A stretch of DNA of 24,000 nt. Source: Desulfofustis sp. PB-SRB1 (GTDB taxonomy: Bacteria; Desulfobacterota; Desulfobulbia; Desulfobulbales; Desulfocapsaceae). This document shows positions 2 through 11,127 of this stretch, in pieces; the first letter of the stretch is position 1, and every line of letters starts with the position of its first letter. A program made the translations under genes and the position numbers. The stretch is from assembly GCA_016722945.1 (NCBI GenBank), contig JAEQMT010000010.1, positions 241,765 to 265,764 on the forward strand, given 5' to 3'. Below the pieces are notes generated by a model. The model was given only the letters and a program-made list of their open reading frames with translations. It did not search any database and was not told where the DNA came from.

Positions 2-838
2 GTTGCTCTGGGCTTTTACAAGGACATTGCCAATATTGATATCACCTTTTTTGAATACACCTGGTATCTGTTCCCGGTTGGTTGGCTTATGACGCTGCTG
101 CTCTGGGGCTTTTTCATGATCTTCTGCAAGCCGGAAAAAGACCGTATCGACGGGCTGAAGGAGCGGTCCAAGCGCATGTACAAGGAGCTTGGCGGGTGGA
201 GTCGCGATGAGATCCTTGCCGTAACGATTGTGGTGGCCACCATTCTGATCATCGCCCTGAAAAATTTCATTCCCGCCCTGGCAGATTTCCACAAAACAGC
301 AATTATACTCTGTTCAACTATTGCCTTCTTTATCACCAGGCTGTTGACCATTGAAGATCTGGAAGAAATTCCCTGGAACATTATTCTTCTGTTCGCCGGC
401 GCCATGTCCATCGGTTTCTGTCTGTGGGAAACCGGAGCGGCCAAGTGGCTGGCCGTCAACTGGCTGGTGATGTTCCAGAATGCCCCGGCAATCGTGTTTA
501 TCCTCGGCATGGCATTTTTTGTTATGATGATGACAAACTTCATCATGAACGTGGCCGCCATTGCCATCTCTTTACCGGTTGCCCTGGTCATTGCCCCCTA
601 TCTTGGCGTGGCGGGGGAGGTTGTGCTCTTTTCATCCCTGGTGGTTTCCGGCATGCCCTTTCTGTTGCTCGTGGGTGCGGCCCCCAATGCCATTGCCTAT
701 AACTCCAGGCAGTTTACTACCGCCGAGTTTGCCATGTATGGCGTACCGGCGAGCATCCTGCTGATGGTGGTCACCTGGTTCGCGGTCGCCGTCATCTGGC
801 CGCTGATGGGAATGCAGGTCTTTATTCCTGCCTCCTGA
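2..838 (+). CDS. SLC13/DASS-family (anion:cation symporter-like) permease, C-terminal portion; the 5' end lies outside the window
   Basis: The frame of the listed 89..838 ORF stays open back to nt 2 (VALGFYKDIANIDITFFEYTWYLFPVGWL precedes the listed Met). The sequence is hydrophobic and multi-TM. Segments PWNIILLFAGAMSIG and VGAAPNAIAY resemble conserved re-entrant regions of DASS/ArsB-NhaD superfamily permeases. Confidence 0.7.
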   Translation, partial: VALGFYKDIANIDITFFEYTWYLFPVGWLMTLLLWGFFMIFCKPEKDRIDGLKERSKRMYKELGGWSRDEILAVTIVVATILIIALKNFIPALADFHKTAIILCSTIAFFITRLLTIEDLEEIPWNIILLFAGAMSIGFCLWETGAAKWLAVNWLVMFQNAPAIVFILGMAFFVMMMTNFIMNVAAIAISLPVALVIAPYLGVAGEVVLFSSLVVSGMPFLLLVGAAPNAIAYNSRQFTTAEFAMYGVPASILLMVVTWFAVAVIWPLMGMQVFIPAS

Positions 839-1081: not shown

Positions 1082-2476
1082 ATGGCTGCCGATAGTCCTG
1101 ATCTGAGCTCTCTACTGGAGGGTTTTCCCCATCCGGTCATGATTTTGGACGACTCCTGCCGAATTATCACCATGAACCGACTCATGGAGGCAATCACCGG
1201 CTATGCCATTCAGCAGGTGGCGGGACTCCATGGCGAACTCGTGGTCCGCAGCAATACCGGCAACAACCGTGGTCAATTGTTCATGGAGGTACTGAGAAGC
1301 GGTGATCCGTCAACCGCCAGGGGTGATATGCTCACCTGTTATCGCCGCAGGATTCCGATCCAGTACACCATTTCGGCGCTGCTGGGTAAAGGCGGCAGGC
1401 GGGTCGGCCTGATGGTGGTTGTCGAGGATACCTCCGCAACTGAAGCGGCAAGCAGTACTATTGATGATGAGCAGCAGGCAAATGGACTGATTGGCTACAG
1501 TCCCGCAATGCGGAAAGTATTTGATGCCATTCCGGTACTTGCCAAGACCGATGCCTCCGTTCTGGTTACCGGCGAAACCGGCACCGGGAAAGATCGCGTG
1601 GCCGAGGTCTTACACAGAAAATCGGAGCGTGCCAGATTCCCGTTTGTTAAAATAAATTGTGGTGCTCTGCCTTCAGAGCTCCTTGAATCGGAGTTGTTCG
1701 GTCACGTCAAGGGCGCCTTCACCGGGGCTACCCGCAACAAACCCGGAAAGTTCAAACTTGCTGAGAAAGGAACCATATTTCTGACGGAAATCGGCGATAT
1801 GCCGTTGCCGTTGCAGGTTAAGCTACTCACCGTGCTGGATGATAAAACATTTGTTCCGGTTGGTGGTGAGCGAGAGCTCACTATTGATGTGAGAATTGTT
1901 GCGGCCACCCATAGGCCGCTGCGGGAGCAGGTCGCCAAGGGGCTGTTTCGGGAAGACCTTTTCTACCGTCTGAACGTGTTGCATGTTCACCTACCCGCAT
2001 TGCGGGAACGGGAAGGTGACGTTCAGTATCTGCTTGATCATTTTCTGCAGAAATATGCAAAGGCATTGGGCAAGACCGTGGTCGGTTTTTCCTCAGACGC
2101 AGTGATTTGCCTTCTTGGCTATCATTATCCAGGCAATGTCAGAGAGTTGAGCAATATCGTCGAGTATGCCGTCAATATGAGTAAGAAGAAAAAAGTAGGT
2201 AAAGAGGATCTGCCTCCCTATCTTTTCGAAAAGACGCAGGTGCAGGGTGCTGCAAGTACTGAAAACAGACAGATGAGTGTACAAGAGTCCGAGCCGATGA
2301 ATGAACAATCAGGAGCACCGGACTACCGGCGGCAACAGCAGAGTTGGGGAGATATTGAGCGCCAGTTGATTGTCGATACACTCAAAAAAAACAGAGGAAA
2401 CCGAACAAAAACCGCTGAAAGTCTTGAATGGGGACGTATGAAGCTGTGGCGCAAGATGCAGAAATACGGACTCTAA
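1082..2476 (+). CDS. Sigma-54-dependent transcriptional activator (bEBP), PAS - AAA+ - Fis-type HTH, no receiver domain (EBP-1)
   Basis: N-terminal PAS-like region (ILDDSCRIITMNRLMEAITGY). Walker A GETGTGKD, ESELFGH, GAFTGA loop and FREDLFYRLNV arginine-finger region. PGNVRELSNIVEYA (sensor II region). C-terminal HTH (NRTKTAESLEWGRMKLWRKMQKYGL). The Walker B region reads FLTEIGD, with T where D is usual. Confidence 0.9.
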   Translation: MAADSPDLSSLLEGFPHPVMILDDSCRIITMNRLMEAITGYAIQQVAGLHGELVVRSNTGNNRGQLFMEVLRSGDPSTARGDMLTCYRRRIPIQYTISALLGKGGRRVGLMVVVEDTSATEAASSTIDDEQQANGLIGYSPAMRKVFDAIPVLAKTDASVLVTGETGTGKDRVAEVLHRKSERARFPFVKINCGALPSELLESELFGHVKGAFTGATRNKPGKFKLAEKGTIFLTEIGDMPLPLQVKLLTVLDDKTFVPVGGERELTIDVRIVAATHRPLREQVAKGLFREDLFYRLNVLHVHLPALREREGDVQYLLDHFLQKYAKALGKTVVGFSSDAVICLLGYHYPGNVRELSNIVEYAVNMSKKKKVGKEDLPPYLFEKTQVQGAASTENRQMSVQESEPMNEQSGAPDYRRQQQSWGDIERQLIVDTLKKNRGNRTKTAESLEWGRMKLWRKMQKYGL

Positions 2477-2492
2477 CGCCGGAGGCAACTCA

Positions 2493-2843
2493 TTGAGAAA
2501 ACTGCTCATACCAATCCAGGGAGACTATGTTGCACCGCGGTTCGATCTTGCGGTGGAATTGCTCATCGTGCGTTTCAGTGATGATGGGCAGGAAGAGCCG
2601 CGAACCATCATTATGGAGCGTCCTTCCGAGGAAGCACTCTGCCAGATGATCGTTGAGGAGCAGGTAACGGATCTGGTCTGTGGCGGGATTGATGAGGTGC
2701 ACTATAACTTCCTGTTGTGGAAAAAAGTCGATGTTATCGACGGTGTTATCGGCGGCTGGTGCCGGGCGCTGGAAAAGGCGGTATGTGGTGATCTGAAAGC
2801 TGGTGAAATTCTGCTAAACGGGGAGGGCGCGCTCGCTCTATAA
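2493..2843 (+). CDS. NifX/NifB-like (dinitrogenase FeMo-cofactor-biosynthesis-domain family) small protein, paralog 1
   Basis: TTG start 7 nt after GGAGG (2481-2485), 16 nt after the EBP-1 stop. LIPIQGDYVAPRFDLA...LVCGGIDEVHYNFLLWKKVDVIDGVIGGW fits the beta-alpha pattern of small NifX/NifB-type proteins. It is clearly paralogous to 8358..8717. Confidence 0.6.
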   Translation: MRKLLIPIQGDYVAPRFDLAVELLIVRFSDDGQEEPRTIIMERPSEEALCQMIVEEQVTDLVCGGIDEVHYNFLLWKKVDVIDGVIGGWCRALEKAVCGDLKAGEILLNGEGALAL

Positions 2844-2848
2844 TTCTT

Positions 2849-4549
2849 ATGAAGATTGCAGATATCATTCTTCCGAATTCCTTGAAAGGTTCTATTGACC
2901 TGGGTTTGGAGAGAAGAAGCTATGGCCGGTTCAAAGTGATTTTGTTTCTGATCATGATCGCGATCACCGCAATACCGGCAACCACGATTGCCTTTCTGGG
3001 CTATATCAATTACAAAAATCTCCTGCAAAAAGATGAGATCACCCAGCTCAAATGGCAGATGGATGGTTCCATCGGTTCCATCGAGCAGATGGTTGGCAGC
3101 CTCAAATCCGTTGTCCAGTTTATCGCTCGCAAAGATCGCTATACGGAATTGACTACGGGCTCCAGCCTTGAGGATCTGTTTGACCGGTTGCAACGGCAAT
3201 ACCCTTCGTTTGCCGATCTTGGCGTGATCGACGAGCAGGGGGTTCAGCAGGCGTATTATGGGTCATATGATCTTGAGGGGACTGACTATTCCGGTGAGAG
3301 CTGGTTCAGCGAAGTGATGGAAAAAGGTCTTCACATCAGCCCCGTATATCGAGGGTATCGAGATGTGCCTCATTTTGCCATTGCCGTCAGCACCTATGAT
3401 CCTGTAATTCGAAAAACATGGGTGATGCGTGCTACTATCGAGGCGGACACGCTACAGAATTTTGTCGGAACCATAAAAACAGAAGCAACCGATGATCTTT
3501 TTCTTGTTGTTAGTGAAGGAGTTTTGCAGACCTTCTCCAATTATTTCGGGCAACCGCTTACCCAGACCGAACTAGAGATCGAACCTGGCGTGCGTTCATA
3601 CATGTCGATGGCGCAGGAAGAATTTCTGATTGCGATCGGCGACATCGCGGCAACCCCGTGGTATCTGGTCATCATCAAAAATGGCTACACCAGCAATAGT
3701 GAGTGGAGGTCGTTTCGCTCCGAGCTGTTCATTCTCTATGTTGTCTGCATGGTCATTAGTGTGATTGTTATCTTCGCCCTGGTCAACATGCTCACCTCGC
3801 TGATTCGCAAGGCTGATGAAATACAGATCGGCATGATGAAGGAAGCGGAACACAAGGACAAACTGGCTTCCATCGGCCGACTCGCCTCAGGGGTGGCGCA
3901 TGAAATCAACAACCCGCTTGCCATTATCAATCAAAAAACCGGTCTGGTTGAAGACATCCTCAATATCACACCAGATTTTGATCATAAACACACGGTTCTC
4001 GAGAGCCTTAAGTCAATTGATAACAGTGTGGAACGGTGCAAGGCAATCACTCATCGATTGCTTGGGTTCGCCCGTCGCACCGAGGTGTTGTACCAGCACA
4101 TTGATGTGAATGAGACGATCAGAGAGGTGCTGAAATTTCTTGAAAAGGAGATGATGTACAGCAGGATTGAGCTGGATCTCCAACTGCAAGACAATTTGCC
4201 GAACATTTACAGCGATCGTCTTCAGATTCAGCAGGTGCTGCTCAACATCATCAACAATGCCATCGACGCAATTGGCAAGGACGGGACGATTTCGATCATA
4301 TCCAACCTGATAGCCGGGGAGGTCAGAATCGTGATTCAAGATGATGGGTCAGGGATCCCCGAGGATATGCTTTCCCAGATATTTGAACCCTTTTTTACAA
4401 CAAAAGAGACAGGCAAAGGGACCGGGCTTGGCCTTTCAATTACCTATGGCCTGGTTAAAAAGCTGGGCGGTGATATTACCGTGCGATCCAATGTCGGTAA
4501 AGGAACCGCTTTTACGATAACCTTACCCGTTAAGGTGGAAAAACAATGA
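2849..4549 (+). CDS. Sensor histidine kinase: TM - Cache-like extracytoplasmic domain - TM - HisKA - HATPase_c
   Basis: Two hydrophobic segments ([23 protein letters not shown] and [20 protein letters not shown]) flank a ~250-aa region containing DYSGESWF (Cache-like). H-box [11 protein letters not shown]-box [15 protein letters not shown]1 QDDGSGIP, F-box FEPFFTTK, G2 GTGLGLSI. Confidence 0.9.
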
Positions 4550-4929
4550 CGAATAACACCAGCAAAAAGATCAGGGTGCTCATTGCCGACGACGAGTTTG
4601 ATTTTGCTTCAACTCTGCAGACGCGTCTGAATTTGCGGGATTTTGAGGCCACTATGGTAAGCTCCGGGGAAGAGGCGGTGCAAGCCGTCGAGCAACAGAA
4701 GCCTGATGTCCTTCTACTTGATCTGAAGATGCCCGATCTGGACGGGTTGGAGGTGTTGTCCAGATTAAAAGAGATGGGCGCTGAGACCAAGGTGATCATT
4801 CTCACCGGGCATGGTTCATTTGAGGTCGGCCGGGAGGGGATGGAAATGGGCGCATTTGACTACATCATGAAGCCGGTGGATCTAAACGAGTTGATTGTCA
4901 AAATCGAGGATGCGCACGGTTCCCGATAA
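4546..4929 (+). CDS. Single-domain response regulator (CheY-like receiver), RR-1
   Basis: ATGA start/stop overlap with the kinase gene. Canonical receiver residues are present: IADDE, LLLDLKMPDLDG, ILTGHG, IMKPV. There is no output domain. Paralogous to 7911..8300. Confidence 0.9.
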   Translation: MTNNTSKKIRVLIADDEFDFASTLQTRLNLRDFEATMVSSGEEAVQAVEQQKPDVLLLDLKMPDLDGLEVLSRLKEMGAETKVIILTGHGSFEVGREGMEMGAFDYIMKPVDLNELIVKIEDAHGSR

Positions 4930-5008
4930 CTCCGTGGCAGCCTGCCGAAGCGACGGCGCGCCGGTGCCTGGGGATCAGGCGTTTCTTATAACGATTGAGA
5001 GGTAAAAT

Positions 5009-5665
5009 ATGGACATACAAAAGTCTCCCCGCGGTGTCGAGGCAGTCTGCCTGGAAGTATATGGCATGCTGTCCGCCTCTGTTACCCATGAAATCAAGAA
5101 TACCCTTTCCATCATCAACGAGAATGCCGGTCTGATCCAGGATCTCTGCGCTATGGTTGAAGGCGATGATGGTGTTCCAGCCGGAAGGGTTGACGCCTCA
5201 ATGCAGATGATTGCCAATCAAGTTAACAGATCAAATGTGATCATGAAAAATCTTAACCGTTTCTCCCACAGCAATGACAGAATTCCCGATCAGGCCGATC
5301 TGTCGGAAACGGTGACGCTTCTGGTGGCATTGACCAGTCGGTTTGCGGCAATGCGTAAAGTTTCGGTAGCCACAGATTGCGAATCCGGACATGTCATAAC
5401 AACCAATGTGCTGACCCTGTATTGCCTGGTTTTCCTCATTCTCAAAACCCTCTACTCTCTTTGTTTGGAAGACACTACGCTGCTGGTGTCAGGTAAGCAG
5501 GCTGCTGGGCTCCTGGAACTGCGGTTTGTTCCGGAAAAAACAAACAGTCAAACATATCCCCCGGACTTTCCCGGCGAAAAGGAGAAGATGCTCGCTGAGC
5601 ACATCGGAGCAACGTGTTCGTGTGAGGATGGGGAGGTGGTCGTGATTTTGAAAGAAAGGGGTTAG
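5009..5665 (+). CDS. Soluble HisKA-containing kinase-like protein with a degenerate or absent ATP-binding motif set
   Basis: RBS GAGAGG 7 nt upstream. H-box SVTHEIKNTLSIINENAGL. The C-terminal ~110 aa have the length of an HATPase_c domain, but I cannot find an N-box Asn, DxGxG (G1) or GxGxGL (G2). No TM segments. Confidence 0.65.
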   Translation: MDIQKSPRGVEAVCLEVYGMLSASVTHEIKNTLSIINENAGLIQDLCAMVEGDDGVPAGRVDASMQMIANQVNRSNVIMKNLNRFSHSNDRIPDQADLSETVTLLVALTSRFAAMRKVSVATDCESGHVITTNVLTLYCLVFLILKTLYSLCLEDTTLLVSGKQAAGLLELRFVPEKTNSQTYPPDFPGEKEKMLAEHIGATCSCEDGEVVVILKERG

Positions 5666-5718
5666 AGTGGCAGGTGAGAGGATCTTTCCCGAAACTTATC
5701 CTGCTGTGAAAGCGTAGA

Positions 5719-6276
5719 TCATGTGATATCACATTTTTGCATCACTTCCAGTATATAATGGTACACATCTGAAAGCCTGAGTACACCCACCACACGATCG
5801 CCATTTTCAACCAGCAAGGACTGGTGTCTTCCCAATACCAGTTGGTGAATGCCCTCGTTAAGCGTTGCGCCTTGGCCAATGTACTCGCTTTTCGCCGGGA
5901 TATGCATGATTTTTCGGACGGTCAGTTTGCCGGCTTTTTTACAGATGTCGTCCAGCGGCTTCTGGAGAAGATCAAAGTCCCGGGTAATGTTACGCACGAA
6001 ACTTGGCCCAAGGCCATGACGGGTCAACATACTGATATCGCCAATATCCTGAAACTCCGGCTCCAGGGCGTGCAGGACGCTGATATGGTCAAGCTTTCCG
6101 ATAACCCGTCCGGCGCCATCGGTAACCAGCAGGGCCCGGTATTTATAGCTCGGCCCTCTTTCATTGCAATGCGCTTTCTCCAGAGCCATAACCGATTCAA
6201 ACAACAAAGAATCTTCGGAAATGGTTGGGTACTGCTCCAGGGGGATCATCACTTGATCAACCGTAACGGGATCCAT
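5719..6276 (-). CDS. CBS-pair domain protein
   Basis: Two CBS-like units (VDQVMIPLEQYPTISEDSLL...RVIGKLDHISVLHAL and LTVRKIMHIPAKSEYIGQGATL...RVVGVLRLSDVYHYILEV). I place the start at ATG 6276 (MDPVTVDQ...), preceded by GGAAGGAGAAG. The track's longer ORF (to 6438) would overlap the upstream gene by 74 nt and begin with an Arg run. Confidence 0.75.
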   Translation of the reverse strand: MDPVTVDQVMIPLEQYPTISEDSLLFESVMALEKAHCNERGPSYKYRALLVTDGAGRVIGKLDHISVLHALEPEFQDIGDISMLTRHGLGPSFVRNITRDFDLLQKPLDDICKKAGKLTVRKIMHIPAKSEYIGQGATLNEGIHQLVLGRHQSLLVENGDRVVGVLRLSDVYHYILEVMQKCDIT

Positions 6277-6364
6277 CTTCTCCTTCCAGACGATATTTCG
6301 GTCAAATTGTAGTGTATCGTTTTCCCAACTGCTGCTTGCAACCAGAGCTAAATCGGGCTGGCCG

Positions 6365-6844
6365 CTATTTCTTCTTCTTCTTCTTCTCCTCCTGATCCAT
6401 AATCTCCTTGGCGGTATCAAATTCACCGGCTTCGGCAAATACCCCTGCCATCAGAGACGATTCGACAGTGGCGCTGTAAGCGCGACGGATCTTATCGACC
6501 AGGGTGTCAACTTCGATGGGTTTTTCCAGATATTCAAAGGCACCAAGCTTCCTTACCTCTTTTTCATCCTGCTCTGTACCCTTACCGGTTAAAACAATGA
6601 CCTGAACTTTCGGGTAAGTTTTTCTTACCCGCTTTAGAACTTCGATGCCGTCTATGCCCGGCATCCGAAGATCAAGCACCATTACATCGGGCACCTCGTT
6701 GCTGACCAACTCGAGCGCCTCTTCACCATCCAGTGCCACACTGGAAGAGAGTTCACGCATGTTAATCCGTTCGGCGAGCGTATTGGCGAAGTCTTTTTCA
6801 TCGTCGACAAGCAAAATCTTGATTTTCTCTTTACCCTTGCCCAT
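6365..6844 (-). CDS. Response regulator receiver with a C-terminal FAEAGE-module and poly-Lys tail (RR-3)
   Basis: Start chosen at ATG 6844 (MGKGKEKIKILLVDDE), preceded by GAGGAG. Canonical receiver residues: LVDDE, VLDLRMPGIDG, VLTGKG, LEKPI. The C-terminal extension SSLMAGVFAEAGEFDTAKEIMDQEEKKKKKK carries the shared motif (FAEAGE encoded at 6422-6439). Confidence 0.85.
   Translation of the reverse strand: MGKGKEKIKILLVDDEKDFANTLAERINMRELSSSVALDGEEALELVSNEVPDVMVLDLRMPGIDGIEVLKRVRKTYPKVQVIVLTGKGTEQDEKEVRKLGAFEYLEKPIEVDTLVDKIRRAYSATVESSLMAGVFAEAGEFDTAKEIMDQEEKKKKKK
6368..6391 (-). repeat. Trinucleotide tract (AAG)5-AAA preceded by GAGGAG, encoding EEKKKKKK
   Basis: The + strand reads TTT CTT CTT CTT CTT CTT CTC CTC immediately before the stop of RR-3. 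The same tract reads as eight Arg codons in the +1 frame. Confidence 0.9.
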
Positions 6845-7355
6845 CCCTTTTCTCCTCTGGTTTGTGTGAAAACCCTCCGGTTTCAGCAATTATCTGCGCT
6901 GTTGTCAGTTCTCCCACCTCGGCAAAAGCAACAGCCATCATCGCGTCCTGACATTTCCGCAGCAGCGGGCGCCGCTTCTTTTCTAGTTTTATCTTGTGCG
7001 CACCCGCTGCCTGTATGCTTCTTATCAGGGTGTTTATTTCCACGGGGACGAGAAAATCATCAAACACGCCGGCCTTCATCGCTGCAATCGAGTTATTGAA
7101 ATAATCGTAAGTATTGATGGTAATTATTTCAACATGAGGCTTGATCCGTTTTATCTCCTCAACGATGCGCACACCCTCGATCTTGAGACTGGATAGATCA
7201 ACAAGTCCAACATCTATGGGCTTTTGCGAAAGAATTGCCGTCGCAGCGCCAATTTGATTGGCGCCAAAGAAACGGAATTCGTTTCTATTTAATCGACTGC
7301 TGATTGCATCTCGAAAGTATTTATCACTTTCGACAAAAAGAAGACTCAGGCCCAT
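6831..7355 (-). CDS. Atypical (pseudo-)receiver domain protein with a C-terminal FAEVGE-module
   Basis: Receiver-like fold pattern (LLFVESD, GLVDLSSLKIEG, IITINT, GVFDDFLVPVEINTL). The position of the invariant Lys (..KP..) is Val (FLVPV), and the acidic pair reads ESD. The C-terminal extension QDAMMAVAFAEVGELTTAQIIAE carries the motif (6909-6926). The 3' end overlaps RR-3 by 14 nt. Confidence 0.75.
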   Translation of the reverse strand: MGLSLLFVESDKYFRDAISSRLNRNEFRFFGANQIGAATAILSQKPIDVGLVDLSSLKIEGVRIVEEIKRIKPHVEIITINTYDYFNNSIAAMKAGVFDDFLVPVEINTLIRSIQAAGAHKIKLEKKRRPLLRKCQDAMMAVAFAEVGELTTAQIIAETGGFSHKPEEKRDGQG

Positions 7356-7366
7356 ACGTAACTCTA

Positions 7367-7690
7367 TCAGGTGCTGATGGGAACAAAACCGTAAGAGATG
7401 TGCGCACCTTCCAGACCGACTTTTTCCAAAAACCCTGCCAATGTGTTTTCTTTCTGAATGTACCGGGTTTCTTTTTTACCAACCAGTCGACGTGCTTCTT
7501 CGACTTCGCCGCTTTCGGCAAAGGCCACTGCGGTCATATGGTTCTGAAAGCCTTGCAATAGCTTATCCAGCAGCCGCTTTGGCTTGTCGGTTACATCAGC
7601 CATGCGGATTGCCGTGTCATGCTCACCTGCCTCGGCGAATGCAGCTGCCGCAAATGTCTTTTCAAATGTGGATTGTGATTTGTTGCCCAT
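7367..7690 (-). CDS. Small (107 aa) soluble protein with two copies of the FAExGE-module; no recognisable domain
   Basis: Start chosen at ATG 7690 (MGNKSQ...), preceded by AGGAGG at 6-nt spacing. Motif copies are TFAAAAFAEAGEHDTAIRMA (FAEAGE at 7622-7639) and HMTAVAFAESGEVEEARRLV (FAESGE at 7505-7522). A weaker third resemblance is LAGFLEKVGLEGA near the C-terminus. Confidence 0.7.
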   Translation of the reverse strand: MGNKSQSTFEKTFAAAAFAEAGEHDTAIRMADVTDKPKRLLDKLLQGFQNHMTAVAFAESGEVEEARRLVGKKETRYIQKENTLAGFLEKVGLEGAHISYGFVPIST

Positions 7691-7752
7691 GGTTACCCTC
7701 CTGTGAGTAGATTGGTAAACTGTTCCACTCATGTGAAACACAATCTATTACC

Positions 7753-7768
7753 TACAAGGATCGTGCCA
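7753..7768 (-). promoter_or_regulatory. Sigma-54 (-24/-12) type promoter for the 7690->5719 operon
   Basis: The minus strand reads TGGCACGATCCTTGTA. TGGCACG is a perfect -24 element and the GG-N10 spacing is correct, but the -12 element is TTGT instead of TTGC. It lies ~60 nt upstream of the ATG at 7690 in an AT-rich intergenic region. Confidence 0.6.
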
Positions 7769-7842
7769 GATCGGAAAATAAAATAAAATCAACGAAAACA
7801 AATAGATATTGTGTTAGAAAAATGAATAGGAAGTCAATAAAT

Positions 7843-7902
7843 CATAATGAAACATTAAGAGACGTTTTTGTAGACCCATAATGAAACATTTAGAGACGTT
7901 TT
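7843..7902. promoter_or_regulatory. Tandem direct repeats, candidate upstream activator sequences (UAS) for a bEBP
   Basis: CATAATGAAACATTAAGAGACGTTTT(T) at 7843-7869 and CATAATGAAACATTTAGAGACGTTTT at 7877-7902. They differ at 1 position and have a 34-bp period. Each contains the dyad AATG-N3-CATT. They sit ~75-150 bp upstream of the sigma-54-like core, separated from it by an A/T-rich stretch. Confidence 0.55.
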
Positions 7903-7910
7903 GCTCTCGC

Positions 7911-8300
7911 TTACCGATCATCGCCATGTGCTCTGCGGTGGGGGACGGCTTCAGTGATCTTTGTGATGAGTTCATCGAGATCAACCGGCTTCATCAAAAA
8001 ATCAAACGCACCGAAGCGCATACCGGCCAATCCCTCCCTCGTTGATCCCTGTCCGGTCAACATGATAACCGGTAAATCAGGGTACTGTTGCTTGACTTGC
8101 TGAAGTACATCAAGCCCGCTTAGGCCGGGCAACATAAGATCCAGCACCATTACGTCGTAGATGTTGTTGGCAAGCAGGTTCAACGCTTCCTCACCATCAA
8201 CCGCAACTCCGGTTGGGTAGCCCCTGATCTGAAGGCGATGAGCGAGCGTTGAAGCGAACTCCTCTTCATCGTCCACCAGCAACAATCTCAGATTATTCAT
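7911..8300 (-). CDS. Single-domain response regulator (CheY-like receiver), RR-2
   Basis: LLVDDEEE, VLDLMLPGLSG, MLTGQG, LMKPV. There is no output domain. Colinear with RR-1 (4546..4929). Confidence 0.9.
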   Translation of the reverse strand: MNNLRLLLVDDEEEFASTLAHRLQIRGYPTGVAVDGEEALNLLANNIYDVMVLDLMLPGLSGLDVLQQVKQQYPDLPVIMLTGQGSTREGLAGMRFGAFDFLMKPVDLDELITKITEAVPHRRAHGDDR

Positions 8301-8357
8301 TAGGTTCTCCCGGTAGTTCCAATCCCCTTGACCGACATATCAGCATCCATGTTAGAC

Positions 8358-8717
8358 TTACTGATTGCCACCCTGATCTGTAGTGTGGTCGACAATATCA
8401 CCGGGTGAAAGCTTCGCATTGGCGTAGCGTTTCAGAGCCTCCTCCCACATACCGATGATGGAATCGAAAACTTCGATGCGTTTCCAGACAAGGTATTGAT
8501 AATATTCTTCCTCAATGCCACAGCAGATGACTGTTGTCACTCCTTCAGTGAGAATCAGGTGACAGAGCTTTTCGGCTGATACCTGGGGCAGGACAACCAG
8601 TTTTTCCTCAAGCTTTTTCCTCTGTTGGTCAAGGGTTACAATGACTGCTTCGGATGCCAGATCAAAACGTGGTGCCACTTCGGCGTCATAGAGTGGAATG
8701 AGAACCTTGTGGTGCAT
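8358..8717 (-). CDS. NifX/NifB-like small protein, paralog 2
   Basis: VLIPLYDAEVAPRFDLASEAVIV...VICCGIEEEYYQYLVWKRIEVFDSIIGMW is colinear with 2493..2843. The start ATG at 8717 is only 4 nt after the EBP-2 stop, which suggests translational coupling. Confidence 0.6.
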   Translation of the reverse strand: MHHKVLIPLYDAEVAPRFDLASEAVIVTLDQQRKKLEEKLVVLPQVSAEKLCHLILTEGVTTVICCGIEEEYYQYLVWKRIEVFDSIIGMWEEALKRYANAKLSPGDIVDHTTDQGGNQ

Positions 8718-8721
8718 GTCG

Positions 8722-10137
8722 CTAAATCCCGTATTGTTTCATTTTTCGCCACAACGTGCTTCTCCCCCACCCTAATAGGTCTGCTGTTTTTTGTTTTTTA
8801 CCGCCCGTCTTGACGAGGGCATTGATAATCATTTGCTTTTCGGTCTGAGCCCAGGTGGAACCAGTCACCTGTACTGTTGTTGCTTCGCGAGCCGCCAGGG
8901 GGGAGGCACCTTGATCAGATACGCCGGATACCGGTGTCGGCATGGTGGAAAGATGGTCTGGTTCCATCAAATAGGTGGGGAGGCTCTCTATTCCGATACG
9001 CGAATCCTGGCTTACATTGACCGCGTACTCAACGATGTTGCGAAGCTCTCTTACATTGCCGGGAAAATGGTAATTATTGAGAAAATACAAGGTCTGCCGG
9101 TCGAACCCCTCTATTTTCTTACCAAACTTTTCAGCAAAGGTGTTGAGGAAATGATCTATGAGCAAAACGATATCATCTTCCCGCTCACGCAGCGGAGGTA
9201 AGGTAATTCTCACTACATTGAGTCTGAACAGCAGGTCTTTTCTGAAACTGCCGTTTTCCACCATCCGTTCAAGATTCTGGTTTGTTCCCGCAATTATTCT
9301 GACATTGACCTCAAAGCCTTTGGTGCTGCCGAGAGGGAAGACGACACGATCGTCGAGGAAGGTGAGCAGTTTGACCTGCAGTGATAGTGGTAAGTCCCCG
9401 ATCTCAGTCAGGTAGAGCGACCCGTTGTGGGCCAGGCGAAAACGGCCGGGTTTGTTTTCTTTGGCGTCGGTGAAGGCACCTTTCTGGTGTCCAAAGAGTT
9501 CCGATTCCAATAATGTTTCCGGAAGTGCACCGCAGTTGATCTTGATAAATGGGCCCCTGGCTCGATTGGAGGCTTTGTGGATGGCCTCCGCGGTAAGATC
9601 TTTACCGGTACCCGTTTCCCCGGTGATGAGAACCGATGAGTCGTTCTGGGCAAGCAGCGGCAGCATCTGAAAAACCTTTTCCATTTGCGGACCTTTTCCG
9701 ATCATTTCGGAAAAGCGAAACCCATGCATATCCTGACTGGTACGATTCTGCAGTGCGCGGATGTCCTCCAGGGTTTCAAGATATCCGATCAGCTCACCGG
9801 ATCCACTGGTTATCGGGGCAAAGGTGATGCGTACCTGAACCAGTTCGCGACCCCGGTTGATCAGATCGGTATGTTCACAAATCGGTTCGGAATCTTCTTT
9901 CAGTCGCAGAACCGGACATTTTTTCAAGCAGATTCGACTGCGAATGATGTTGTGACACATAACTCCCCGGGCCTCCTGGGGAGAATAACCGGTCAACGCC
10001 GAGACAGCTTTGTTCGTATGGGCTATTCGGCGATCCTTGTCCAGGATGACAACGCCAATGGGTATTTCATCGAGAATGGTATCAAATGGTACTGACTGAT
10101 CGAATAGTGCCGTAATTTTTGGTTTATTTGACTTCAT
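8722..10137 (-). CDS. Sigma-54-dependent transcriptional activator (bEBP), PAS - AAA+ - Fis-type HTH (EBP-2), paralog of 1082..2476
   Basis: PAS-like N-terminus (ILDKDRRIAHTNKAVSALTGY). GETGTGKD, ESELFGH, loop GAFTDA (variant of GAFTGA), YLTEIGD (Walker B with T for D), FRKDLLFRLNV, PGNVRELRNIVEYA. HTH KQKTADLLGWGRSTLWRKMKQYGI. Cys cluster C-X8-C-X3-C-X12-C in the sensory region. Confidence 0.9.
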   Translation of the reverse strand: MKSNKPKITALFDQSVPFDTILDEIPIGVVILDKDRRIAHTNKAVSALTGYSPQEARGVMCHNIIRSRICLKKCPVLRLKEDSEPICEHTDLINRGRELVQVRITFAPITSGSGELIGYLETLEDIRALQNRTSQDMHGFRFSEMIGKGPQMEKVFQMLPLLAQNDSSVLITGETGTGKDLTAEAIHKASNRARGPFIKINCGALPETLLESELFGHQKGAFTDAKENKPGRFRLAHNGSLYLTEIGDLPLSLQVKLLTFLDDRVVFPLGSTKGFEVNVRIIAGTNQNLERMVENGSFRKDLLFRLNVVRITLPPLREREDDIVLLIDHFLNTFAEKFGKKIEGFDRQTLYFLNNYHFPGNVRELRNIVEYAVNVSQDSRIGIESLPTYLMEPDHLSTMPTPVSGVSDQGASPLAAREATTVQVTGSTWAQTEKQMIINALVKTGGKKQKTADLLGWGRSTLWRKMKQYGI

Positions 10138-10202: not shown

Positions 10203-10303
10203 GTGTACCATCTCGACAGCAATAAGCATCACTAATTCAAGGATCCCTTCAACCAGAAAATCATGGGTACATGCCCTTCTTGCCGGAAGGGTAAGAGATA
10301 TGG

Positions 10304-10441
10304 GAATCCTGCAAAATGGCCTTTTCGCCCAACCTCACCGTTGCTCAAAAAATGTATTCTCAAATATTGGCTCTTTGCCTGTGATAGAATGTACCTCGCG
10401 CCTCAACCTTGCACGAAAATGCTCAATTTTCAAGGTCCCCA
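10304..10441 (+). repeat. Conserved noncoding element, copy B (paralog of 924..1060)
   Basis: Evidence as for copy A. It lies in a 516-nt gene-free gap and has the same absolute orientation as copy A, so it is inverted relative to its neighbouring activator gene. An imperfect hairpin follows at 10444-10469 (CCACTTCCC...GGGAATTGTGG). Confidence 0.6.
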
Positions 10442-10653: not shown

Positions 10654-11127
10654 CTACCCGGAGAATGGAATAGATGAGTGGTGGAGATCGATTTTAACCT
10701 TGCCGGCTGAATCCTTTTTATAGCCGAAGGTGTACTCAACCTTGGTTTCATTTCCCTCAAGATCGGTAAACCAGTAGTTACCCATTGCGATGGCCCGGTT
10801 TTCTTCGAGGATGATGGCGGCATTTTCAAATCGAACAGCGGTCCATGGATTGATTGCGAAACCAGTATCTTCGGGATAATCGCTGTTTCCACCAACAAAA
10901 TAGGAGAGGGCAGCTATCTTGCCGAGGCGAAATTGCACCTGCGCACACTTTGTCGGTTTGAACAAAACATCACCCAGTTCAAATGCATAGAGAGTGTCGA
11001 GATGCTCTTCGGCTGCTTTGACAGCGGCGCTGACATCCGCCTTTAAGGAGCCTATTCTGACAATGCCATTTCCCCATGCCTGCTGTGCTTTGATGACTTC
11101 CTGTTCGGTAAACATAGATTTTCCCAT
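10654..11127 (-). CDS. NTF2-like / SnoaL-like fold protein (hypothetical)
   Basis: Soluble ~155-aa protein. The N-terminal FTEQEVIKAQQAWGNGIVRIG and the later alternating beta-like segments (AIAMGNYWFTDLEGNETKVEYTFGYKKD) resemble the NTF2-superfamily cone fold. The assignment is from memory of similar sequences, not from a search. The start could be the second Met (MFTEQE). Confidence 0.45.
   Translation of the reverse strand: MGKSMFTEQEVIKAQQAWGNGIVRIGSLKADVSAAVKAAEEHLDTLYAFELGDVLFKPTKCAQVQFRLGKIAALSYFVGGNSDYPEDTGFAINPWTAVRFENAAIILEENRAIAMGNYWFTDLEGNETKVEYTFGYKKDSAGKVKIDLHHSSIPFSG

Follow-up and report, generated by a model that had tools for sequence, protein, structure and literature searches.

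Sigma-54 activators can be controlled in trans by a partner protein, as in the pairs NifL-NifA, PspA-PspF and HrpV-HrpS. OrpR is a sigma-54 activator with a [4Fe-4S] cluster in its PAS domain that adjoins and controls PF02579-type orp genes (PMC8359166, PMC4641369), and its cysteines C52, C61 and C65 are needed for this redox-sensing cluster (PMC8359166). A 2025 study describes a gene cluster, conserved in 26 sulfate reducers, which combines a DASS transporter with Cache kinases, receivers and CBS proteins; it was proposed that the kinase senses sulfate and the cluster controls its uptake (PMC11887813). In Desulfobacterium autotrophicum, a response to sulfate concentration has been observed for DASS genes (PMC5840216). 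The present analysis deals with a stretch of 24,000 nucleotides from Desulfofustis sp. PB-SRB1 (contig JAEQMT010000010.1, positions 241,765 to 265,764 of the forward strand; this whole stretch is the window in the following), where two gene sets on opposite strands each combine the gene of a sigma-54 enhancer-binding protein (EBP) with that of a small NifX-like protein directly downstream.

We lean toward the view that the region contains two anciently diverged copies of one signaling cassette which, in sulfate-reducing Desulfobacterota, is kept next to a transporter of DASS type, probably for sulfate, the left copy likely driving the DASS operon and the right copy a central operon located between the sets. 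The coupling of EBP and NifX-like genes is conserved and specific, and the universal NifX-like partner as well as a threonine in the Walker B motif of the activator are features not reported in the papers searched. A literature search for links between PF02579 proteins and enhancer-binding proteins yielded only the orp work and nif regulation.

Coupling of Activator and NifX-Like Genes

The gene inventory was obtained from an ORF listing and Pfam scans of the window. The two sets consist of the following genes.

1082..2476, plus strand: EBP-1 with PAS, Sigma54_activat, AAA_lid_14 and HTH_8 domains (Pfam).
2493..2843, plus strand: NifX-like-1, 116 aa, of a PRFD/two-Cys subfamily, recognized by homology to NifX-like-2.
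2849..4549, plus strand: Cache sensor histidine kinase with dCache_1, HisKA and HATPase_c domains (Pfam).
4546..4929, plus strand: RR-1, a canonical single-domain receiver (Pfam, 105.6 bits).
5009..5665, plus strand: HisKA-only protein, 218 aa, usual fifth gene of the cassette, with kinase matches limited to the DHp region.
7911..8300, minus strand: RR-2, a canonical single-domain receiver (Pfam).
8358..8717, minus strand: NifX-like-2, 119 aa, PF02579 (Pfam, AlphaFold2, Foldseek).
8722..10137, minus strand: EBP-2 with PAS, Sigma54_activat, AAA_lid_14 and HTH_8 domains (Pfam).

All genes which the original prediction had named for the two modules were found in their places, and pairwise BLASTP bore out its three colinear paralog pairs over their full length, at 43% identity for the EBPs (457 aa, E = 2e-134), 39% for the NifX-like proteins (E = 2e-28) and 46% for RR-1 and RR-2 (E = 3e-36). 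The motifs quoted there as shared reappear in the alignments, except that the receiver motif given as DL.MP reads DLKMP in RR-1 but DLMLP in RR-2. Both receivers retain the DD pair, the acceptor Asp, the Thr and the Lys. Likewise, Pfam detects a receiver domain in neither EBP-1 nor EBP-2, as predicted, and the noted asymmetry in kinase content is real, with the Cache kinase encoded in the left set only. By genome-wide tblastn, the Cache kinase, the HisKA-only gene and a DASS of this type are each present once in the genome.

The genes of both sets are tightly spaced. EBP-1 ends with TAA and is followed, after 16 nt including GGAGG, by the TTG start of NifX-like-1, while the TAG of EBP-2 and the ATG of NifX-like-2 are separated by 4 nt. 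Only 5 nt lie between NifX-like-1 and the Cache kinase gene, the stop of which is overlapped by the start of RR-1, and a 169-bp gap leads from RR-2 to the central operon.

For assessing conservation, 80 loci from one-genome-per-species contigs were collected with a profile of the NifX-like subfamily and annotated by tblastn with the window proteins. Upstream flank sufficient for judging the position of the EBP gene is available for 74 of them, and in all 74 an EBP gene is found directly upstream of the NifX-like gene on the same strand. In a separate sample from the order of the window's genome, 29 of 81 genomes possess the NifX-like subfamily, with the EBP upstream in 25 of 26 assessable loci. 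The predicted coupling is hence found in 99 of 100 assessable loci. On this point, as on the puzzling wiring of receiver-less activators beside stand-alone receivers, the original prediction was right, and of the observations it had listed as refuting, those open to testing did not turn up. The gene following the NifX-like one is a Cache kinase in 54, a receiver in 5 and another gene, mostly an atypical receiver, in 10 out of 69 loci. Within the fetched flank (10 kb), a DASS transporter is encoded in 37, a CBS protein in 31 and a HisKA-only protein in 45 of the 80 loci.

Two cassette layouts recur. In type 2, the order EBP, NifX-like protein, Cache kinase, receiver and HisKA-only protein is followed by a sigma-54 promoter and a target operon encoding small protein, atypical receiver, receiver(s), CBS protein and DASS; hosts are Desulfobacterales, Desulfohalobiaceae, Syntrophobacteraceae, Desulfarculia and SAR324 bins. 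In type 1, found in Desulfopila-like genomes and in the window's order, cytidylate-kinase-like receiver, receiver, CBS protein (not always present) and DASS precede EBP, NifX-like protein, Cache kinase, receiver and HisKA-only protein. The left side in the window's genome shows exactly the type-1 layout, the right side the type-2 layout minus kinase, HisKA-only gene and DASS gene.

Activator Signatures

Both EBPs have the sigma-54 AAA+ domain PF00158 (227.1 and 218.7 bits) with the Walker A sequence GETGTGK as well as a C-terminal HTH_8 domain, and rpoN is present in the genome (430 bits, over the cut-off). The Walker B motif, however, departs from the canonical hhhhDE, reading L-T-E in EBP-1 and EBP-2. 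The same replacement of Asp by Thr is found in all 97 EBPs with a NifX-like gene beside them; 91 of these were confirmed by motif scan, and the small-gene neighbor of the other six was established by tblastn. In contrast, the 22 remaining EBPs of these loci all read L-D-E, as do all six OrpR-like EBPs and 15 other readable EBPs of the window's genome, where the search pattern found no Walker B in eight further EBP matches. L-T-E activators without the small gene were looked for in this genome and in the surveyed loci. In three Desulfosalsimonas-like bins (L024, L042, L043), the EBP-like gene next to the NifX-like gene has an L-A-E Walker B and neither a GAFTGA loop nor the PAS cysteine motif described below; these proteins may have lost sigma-54 activation.

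The sigma-54 contact loop is GAFTGA in EBP-1 and GAFTDA in EBP-2. The latter variant is common to three metagenome contigs related to the window (L164-L166) and three other EBPs of the window's genome, and OrpR, a functional activator, has it as well (PMC4641369). Taking GAFTDA as a sign of inactivity of EBP-2 was consequently rejected.

The PAS domain of EBP-2 bears, at about residue 60, a C-X8-C-X3-C motif (CHNIIRSRICLKKC) which is present in nearly all type-2 EBPs and, identically, in OrpR-like EBPs found beside MrpORP. Its spacing matches that of C52, C61 and C65 in OrpR (PMC8359166). The motif is absent from EBP-1, type-1 EBPs and the other EBPs of the window's order. A function of the NifX-like protein as dedicated maturase of a PAS Fe-S cluster was considered but is unlikely, as type-1 EBPs keep the partner without having the cysteines.

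The NifX-Like Small Proteins

The assignment of the small proteins to the NifX/NifB type in the original prediction stands for NifX-like-2, which scores 30.4 bits against PF02579 (cut-off 26.3) and adopts the fold of this family, but not directly for NifX-like-1, which has no Pfam match of its own at E ≤ 0.01 and is recognized through its clear homology to NifX-like-2. The AlphaFold2 model of NifX-like-2 (pLDDT 90.2) retrieves only PF02579-fold structures among the top 14 Foldseek matches in the PDB, including MJ0327, PH0822, TM1816, NifX, NafY and ORP. Moreover, a profile of 30 members of the NifX-like family matches the solved structure of MJ0327 with E = 1.5e-5. The subfamily is compact, with about 40 representatives at 50% identity reaching E < 1e-20 in a search of 1.84 billion proteins. 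Orthologues of NifX-like-1, the named ones in Desulfopila, Desulfofustis and Desulforhopalus, are 62-80% identical, and homologues of NifX-like-2 show 55-79% identity. Invariant are P-R-F-D, two Cys, W-K and a few acidic residues; the two Cys and the PRFD loop are suggestive of cofactor binding, but only suggestive.

The NifX-like protein could alternatively be no regulator of the activator but cargo or the product of a target gene, left over from an ancestor of the orpR-orp kind, and act as a small metal-cluster carrier that is simply co-transcribed, for example for maturation of Fe-S or Mo proteins upon a change in sulfate uptake. OrpR-like EBPs do form the sister clade, an OrpR-like EBP gene is followed by a PF02579 gene in two orp loci (L128, L129), the known OrpR regulon is the orp genes themselves (PMC8359166), and PF02579 proteins such as NifX, NafY and ORP are cofactor carriers. 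Nevertheless, we judge this explanation to be unlikely, as the NifX-like gene lies inside the regulator operon of EBP, NifX-like protein, histidine kinase and receiver, with gaps of 4-16 nt, and not behind the sigma-54 promoter. Its adjacency to the EBP gene has outlasted many rearrangements of other genes (99 of 100 loci, see above), and the small gene co-occurs perfectly with the Walker B Thr variant.

Probable Target Operons, Promoters and Transporter

The features outside the two sets that are relevant to their targets are as follows.

2..838, plus strand: 3′ part of the DASS transporter gene (Pfam Na_sulph_symp/CitMHS), last gene of the upstream operon.
5719..7741, minus strand: central operon, predicted to be sigma-54-driven (Pfam; gene order as after type-2 cassettes elsewhere).
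5719-6276, minus strand: CBS protein of the central operon (Pfam scan).
6365-6844, minus strand: receiver RR-3 of the central operon (Pfam scan).
6831-7355, minus strand: atypical receiver of the central operon (Pfam scan).
7367-7693, minus strand: small protein of the central operon (gene order as after type-2 cassettes).
7754..7768, minus strand: sigma-54 promoter-like site TGGCACGATCCTTGT of the form TGGCAC-N5-TTGT.
7843..7902, minus strand, upstream of this site: two 26-bp direct repeats (7843-7868 and 7877-7902) with the core ATGTTTCATTATG and a 34-bp period.

The gene order marks the central operon as the canonical sigma-54 target of the right cassette, and 28 sites of the form TGGCAY-N5-TTGC occur in the 80 surveyed loci just before a homologue of the small protein or of the atypical receiver. 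The 26-bp repeats occur nowhere else in the genome. In L164, L003, L040, L054 and L081, related repeats with a GTTTCA core precede the sigma-54 site by 100-140 bp; the window repeats are probable binding sites of EBP-2. Their uniqueness in the genome together with the GTTTCA repeats of type-2 loci fits, without proving it, a regulon of EBP-2 which would be limited to the central operon.

On the left side, the full DASS gene (499 aa) and two receiver genes are located directly upstream of the window (L090), in the order cytidylate-kinase-like receiver, receiver and DASS that is also found in L007, L009 and L167. In the stretch L090 9240-9400, this operon is preceded by TGGCATTTAAATTGC, a TGGCAT-N5-TTGC site of its own, and it is probably served by the left cassette, as suggested by the type-1 gene order. 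About 120-150 bp further upstream of TGGCATTTAAATTGC, ACATAA-type repeats are present, which are possible EBP-1 sites. DASS, Cache kinase, receivers and CBS protein are all encoded in one cluster here, and the transporter is probably one for sulfate.

Three further features of the window may be mentioned. A 37-nt direct repeat occurs four times at 6417-7653 (minus strand) and encodes a short common peptide, ..AFAEAGE.., which is present twice in the small protein and also in the C-terminal tails of the atypical receiver and RR-3. A 157-aa protein (10654-11127, minus strand) resembles metal-independent carbonic anhydrase (NF047901), with 133 bits at a cut-off of 350. An Rfam scan of the window matched no family.

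Evolutionary Origin of the Two Gene Sets

In a quick tree of EBPs with SH-aLRT support values, the OrpR-like EBPs encoded beside MrpORP form one clade (SH-aLRT 100) and the NifX-like-paired EBPs its sister group. Among the latter, type 1 and type 2 are separated, with EBP-1 in the type-1 clade (SH-aLRT 100) and EBP-2 nested deep in type 2 among genes of Desulfobacterales/Desulfohalobiaceae type, beside one from a Desulfohalobiaceae bin. The NifX-like tree is congruent, again placing the two window copies in different old clades, and each set is closer to cassettes of other lineages (63-70% identity) than to its neighbor (39-46%). Therefore, the two modules are, by the trees, old paralogues or the product of transfer and not of a local inverted duplication.

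The picture of two inverted modules bracketing a separate island, as drawn in the original prediction, is accordingly not upheld: the trees split the copies, and the supposed island contains the usual target of the right cassette. A recent inverted duplication in this genome, leaving redundant copies around unrelated genes, would account for the colinearity of the three protein pairs and for modules facing each other. However, it is highly improbable in view of outside relatives (63-80% identity) that are closer to each copy than the copies are to one another, the placement of the copies in different clades of both trees, and a central operon of the kind that normally follows type-2 cassettes. 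Nor does the similarity of about 145 nt near both EBPs help, as it represents a repeat dispersed over the genome in more than 150 copies. For the same reason, and with both window copies (918-1062 and 10298-10441) on the same strand, this intergenic repeat was rejected as part of the modules. Its genome copies show 68-83% identity and lie on both strands, and it is absent from the related contigs L164-L166.

These three metagenome contigs, originating from different samples and showing about 75% protein identity, have the same convergent two-cassette layout, and the second kinase is missing there as well. Therefore, the asymmetric state with one kinase is maintained, and the lack of a kinase gene in the right set is, judging from these contigs, a stable state.

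Kinase, Receivers and HisKA-Only Protein

Across the 80 loci, the receiver encoded next to the kinase finds its best match in RR-2 (47-63% identity), which on this sequence comparison is the orthologue of the receiver following the Cache kinase in type-2 cassettes. Alternatively to sharing the left kinase, the right module might be self-sufficient, with RR-2 obtaining phosphate from an unlinked kinase or from small-molecule donors, or acting only as a phosphate sink, and with no cross-talk from the left kinase. This is conceivable insofar as kinase-less type-2 modules are also known from other lineages (L020, L021, L022) and the genome encodes many other histidine kinases. Yet we hold it to be quite improbable, considering the orthology of RR-2 to the receiver encoded after the Cache kinase in 54 loci, the location of the sole Cache kinase of that family only 3 kb away, and the retention of the kinase-less layout together with the left cassette in L164-L166.

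The HisKA-only protein has no Pfam match, so that no HATPase_c domain was found, and resembles kinases solely in the DHp region. Its AlphaFold2 model (pLDDT 90.1) consists of a DHp hairpin and a degenerate CA-like domain, and the Foldseek matches are kinase cores and ChpT (4fpp). H27 is invariant; all invariant residues belong to DHp and none to the CA-like half. The protein is a candidate phosphotransferase of the ChpT/Spo0B kind on the basis of this model, and its combination with a kinase and single-domain receivers suggests a multi-step relay.

Proposed Mechanism and Significance

The full cassette comprises an OrpR-related activator with Walker B Thr, the coupled two-Cys protein of PF02579 fold, a periplasmic Cache kinase, a single-domain receiver and the HisKA-only protein, the activator probably driving the sigma-54 promoter of an operon for receiver proteins, CBS protein and DASS. 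The left cassette is complete and probably activates the preceding operon of cytidylate-kinase-like receiver, receiver and DASS. The right one, of Desulfobacterales type and with the OrpR-like Fe-S PAS motif, is without a kinase, a HisKA-only gene and a transporter of its own, having lost them, and probably acts from the GTTTCA repeats to switch on the central operon. We infer that RR-1 and RR-2 both receive phosphate from the one Cache kinase and that phosphate may pass via the HisKA-only protein to other receivers, in a relay resembling Spo0F/Spo0B or ChpT. As a co-sensor or modulator of the kind suggested in the original prediction, the NifX-like protein would bind a metal-sulfur ligand and modulate its partner activator in trans, as NifL does with NifA or PspA with PspF, and the PAS cluster of EBP-2 would add a redox input.

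Several points weigh against this scheme. One locus of the window's order (L180; G257:C35:4485-8125) encodes NifX-like protein, kinase, receiver and HisKA-only protein with no EBP upstream; it is the sole assessable locus of this kind, and the ORFs upstream are unrelated and show no similarity to EBPs. Fusions of EBP and NifX-like protein, which would speak for physical contact, are not among the best 150 representatives, where the longer matches are ordinary PF02579 fusions (DUF1847, DUF5320). The small protein cannot simply serve the PAS cluster because type-1 EBPs have no PAS cysteines, RR-2 might be fed by some other kinase elsewhere in the genome, and the promoters are assigned to the individual EBPs by position and repeats. 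In addition, the DASS protein scores 193.6 bits against TIGR00785 (dass), below the cut-off of 198.6, and its substrate is deduced in a family which also carries dicarboxylates.

More speculatively, and with little probability at present, EBP and NifX-like protein could constitute an obligate two-protein sigma-54 switch, in which the Walker B Thr would stop the ATPase from firing alone and the metal-sulfur-loaded PF02579 partner would gate ATP hydrolysis. Ligands that might, equally tentatively, be envisaged for the partner are an Fe-S cluster, sulfide or polysulfide, or thiomolybdate derived from the sulfate analogue molybdate. If such a switch exists, expression of the sulfate transporter would depend on intracellular sulfur or metal status and not just on the external signal perceived by the Cache kinase.

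Dissimilatory sulfate reduction, which plays a major part in the carbon and sulfur cycles of the sea, begins with the uptake of sulfate, and the regulation of this step has hardly been studied. The model published for the DASS cluster relies on Cache kinases, receivers and CBS proteins only; it would gain a sigma-54 layer consisting of an OrpR-related activator, a non-canonical Walker B throughout the family and a dedicated NifX-like partner. For research on sigma-54, this is a natural and widespread activator family with an ATPase motif off the rule and a constant small companion of cofactor-carrier fold. PF02579 members outside nitrogen fixation are mostly without known role, and one subfamily now obtains a testable regulatory one. 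Finally, the layout of two cassettes with one kinase represents a natural experiment on two switches sharing one sensor.

Comparison With Known Systems

With NifL-NifA, PspA-PspF and HrpV-HrpS, the system shares a receiver-less activator and a partner, small or sensory, whose gene belongs to the same operon, often with translational coupling. It differs in the cofactor-carrier fold of its putative partner. The Spo0 (KinA-Spo0F-Spo0B-Spo0A) and CckA-ChpT-CtrA/CpdR relays correspond in the succession of a kinase, a single-domain receiver and, here, a protein of about 218 aa with DHp and degenerate CA-like domains, with further receivers encoded close by in the window. However, the DNA-binding terminal regulator of those relays is absent here, and the likeness of the HisKA-only protein to ChpT is at fold level only, with a TM score of about 0.5. 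With the PF02579 family (NifX, NafY, NifB C-terminal domain, orange protein), NifX-like-2 has the fold in common, and the PRFD loop aligns with the PRFG loop of a PF02579 protein from the orp-like cluster of the same genome, whereas the invariant P-R-F-D, two Cys and W-K are not the usual family motifs, nif genes are not nearby and the subfamily is paired with an activator.

The pairing of an activator with a NifX-like gene had been regarded as not textbook, but it has a known relative in OrpR, which lies beside PF02579-type orp genes (PMC8359166, PMC4641369). OrpR (DVU2106) of Desulfovibrio vulgaris Hildenborough likewise combines PAS, sigma-54 AAA+ and HTH domains without a receiver domain (PMC8359166, PMC3897727, PMC4641369). 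Further features in common are the C-X8-C-X3-C of the PAS domain (EBP-2 and nearly all type-2 EBPs), the GAFTDA loop (EBP-2), adjoining genes for small PF02579-type proteins and an A/T-rich spacer between the binding sites, putative in our case, and the sigma-54 promoter. In phylogeny, the OrpR-like EBPs beside MrpORP are the sister clade of the NifX-like-paired ones. On the other hand, OrpR shows just 38-40% identity and belongs to a separate clade, OrpR-like proteins have L-D-E instead of L-T-E in Walker B, and the cysteines are missing in EBP-1 and other EBPs of the window's order. Genes for MrpORP and MinD-like orp proteins are not near the window, the small protein here is from the distinct PRFD/two-Cys subfamily, and the cassette includes a Cache kinase and receivers and would target receiver/CBS/DASS operons and not orp genes. 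The genome does have an orp-like cluster of its own about 78 kb from the window (L097, C1:163.5-166 kb), encoding two PF02579 proteins, two MinD-like Fe-S ATPases and a receiver-like protein; no OrpR-type EBP is encoded beside it, nor does any sigma-54 activator gene adjoin.

The DASS cluster described for Desulfosarcina variabilis and a further 25 sulfate reducers (PMC11887813) has DASS, Cache kinase, receivers and CBS protein in common with the locus described here, so that these surroundings are already published (2025), whereas the activator/NifX-like pair is not part of the accessible portion of that account, where sigma-54 activator and NifX-like protein go unmentioned. The regulators are called WalR-type there; here, the receivers are without DNA-binding domain and the promoters are of sigma-54 type, and two cassettes are present with one kinase. 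Taken together, the system is a variant of both OrpR-type activators and DASS regulatory clusters, with a mechanism that we infer from sequence.

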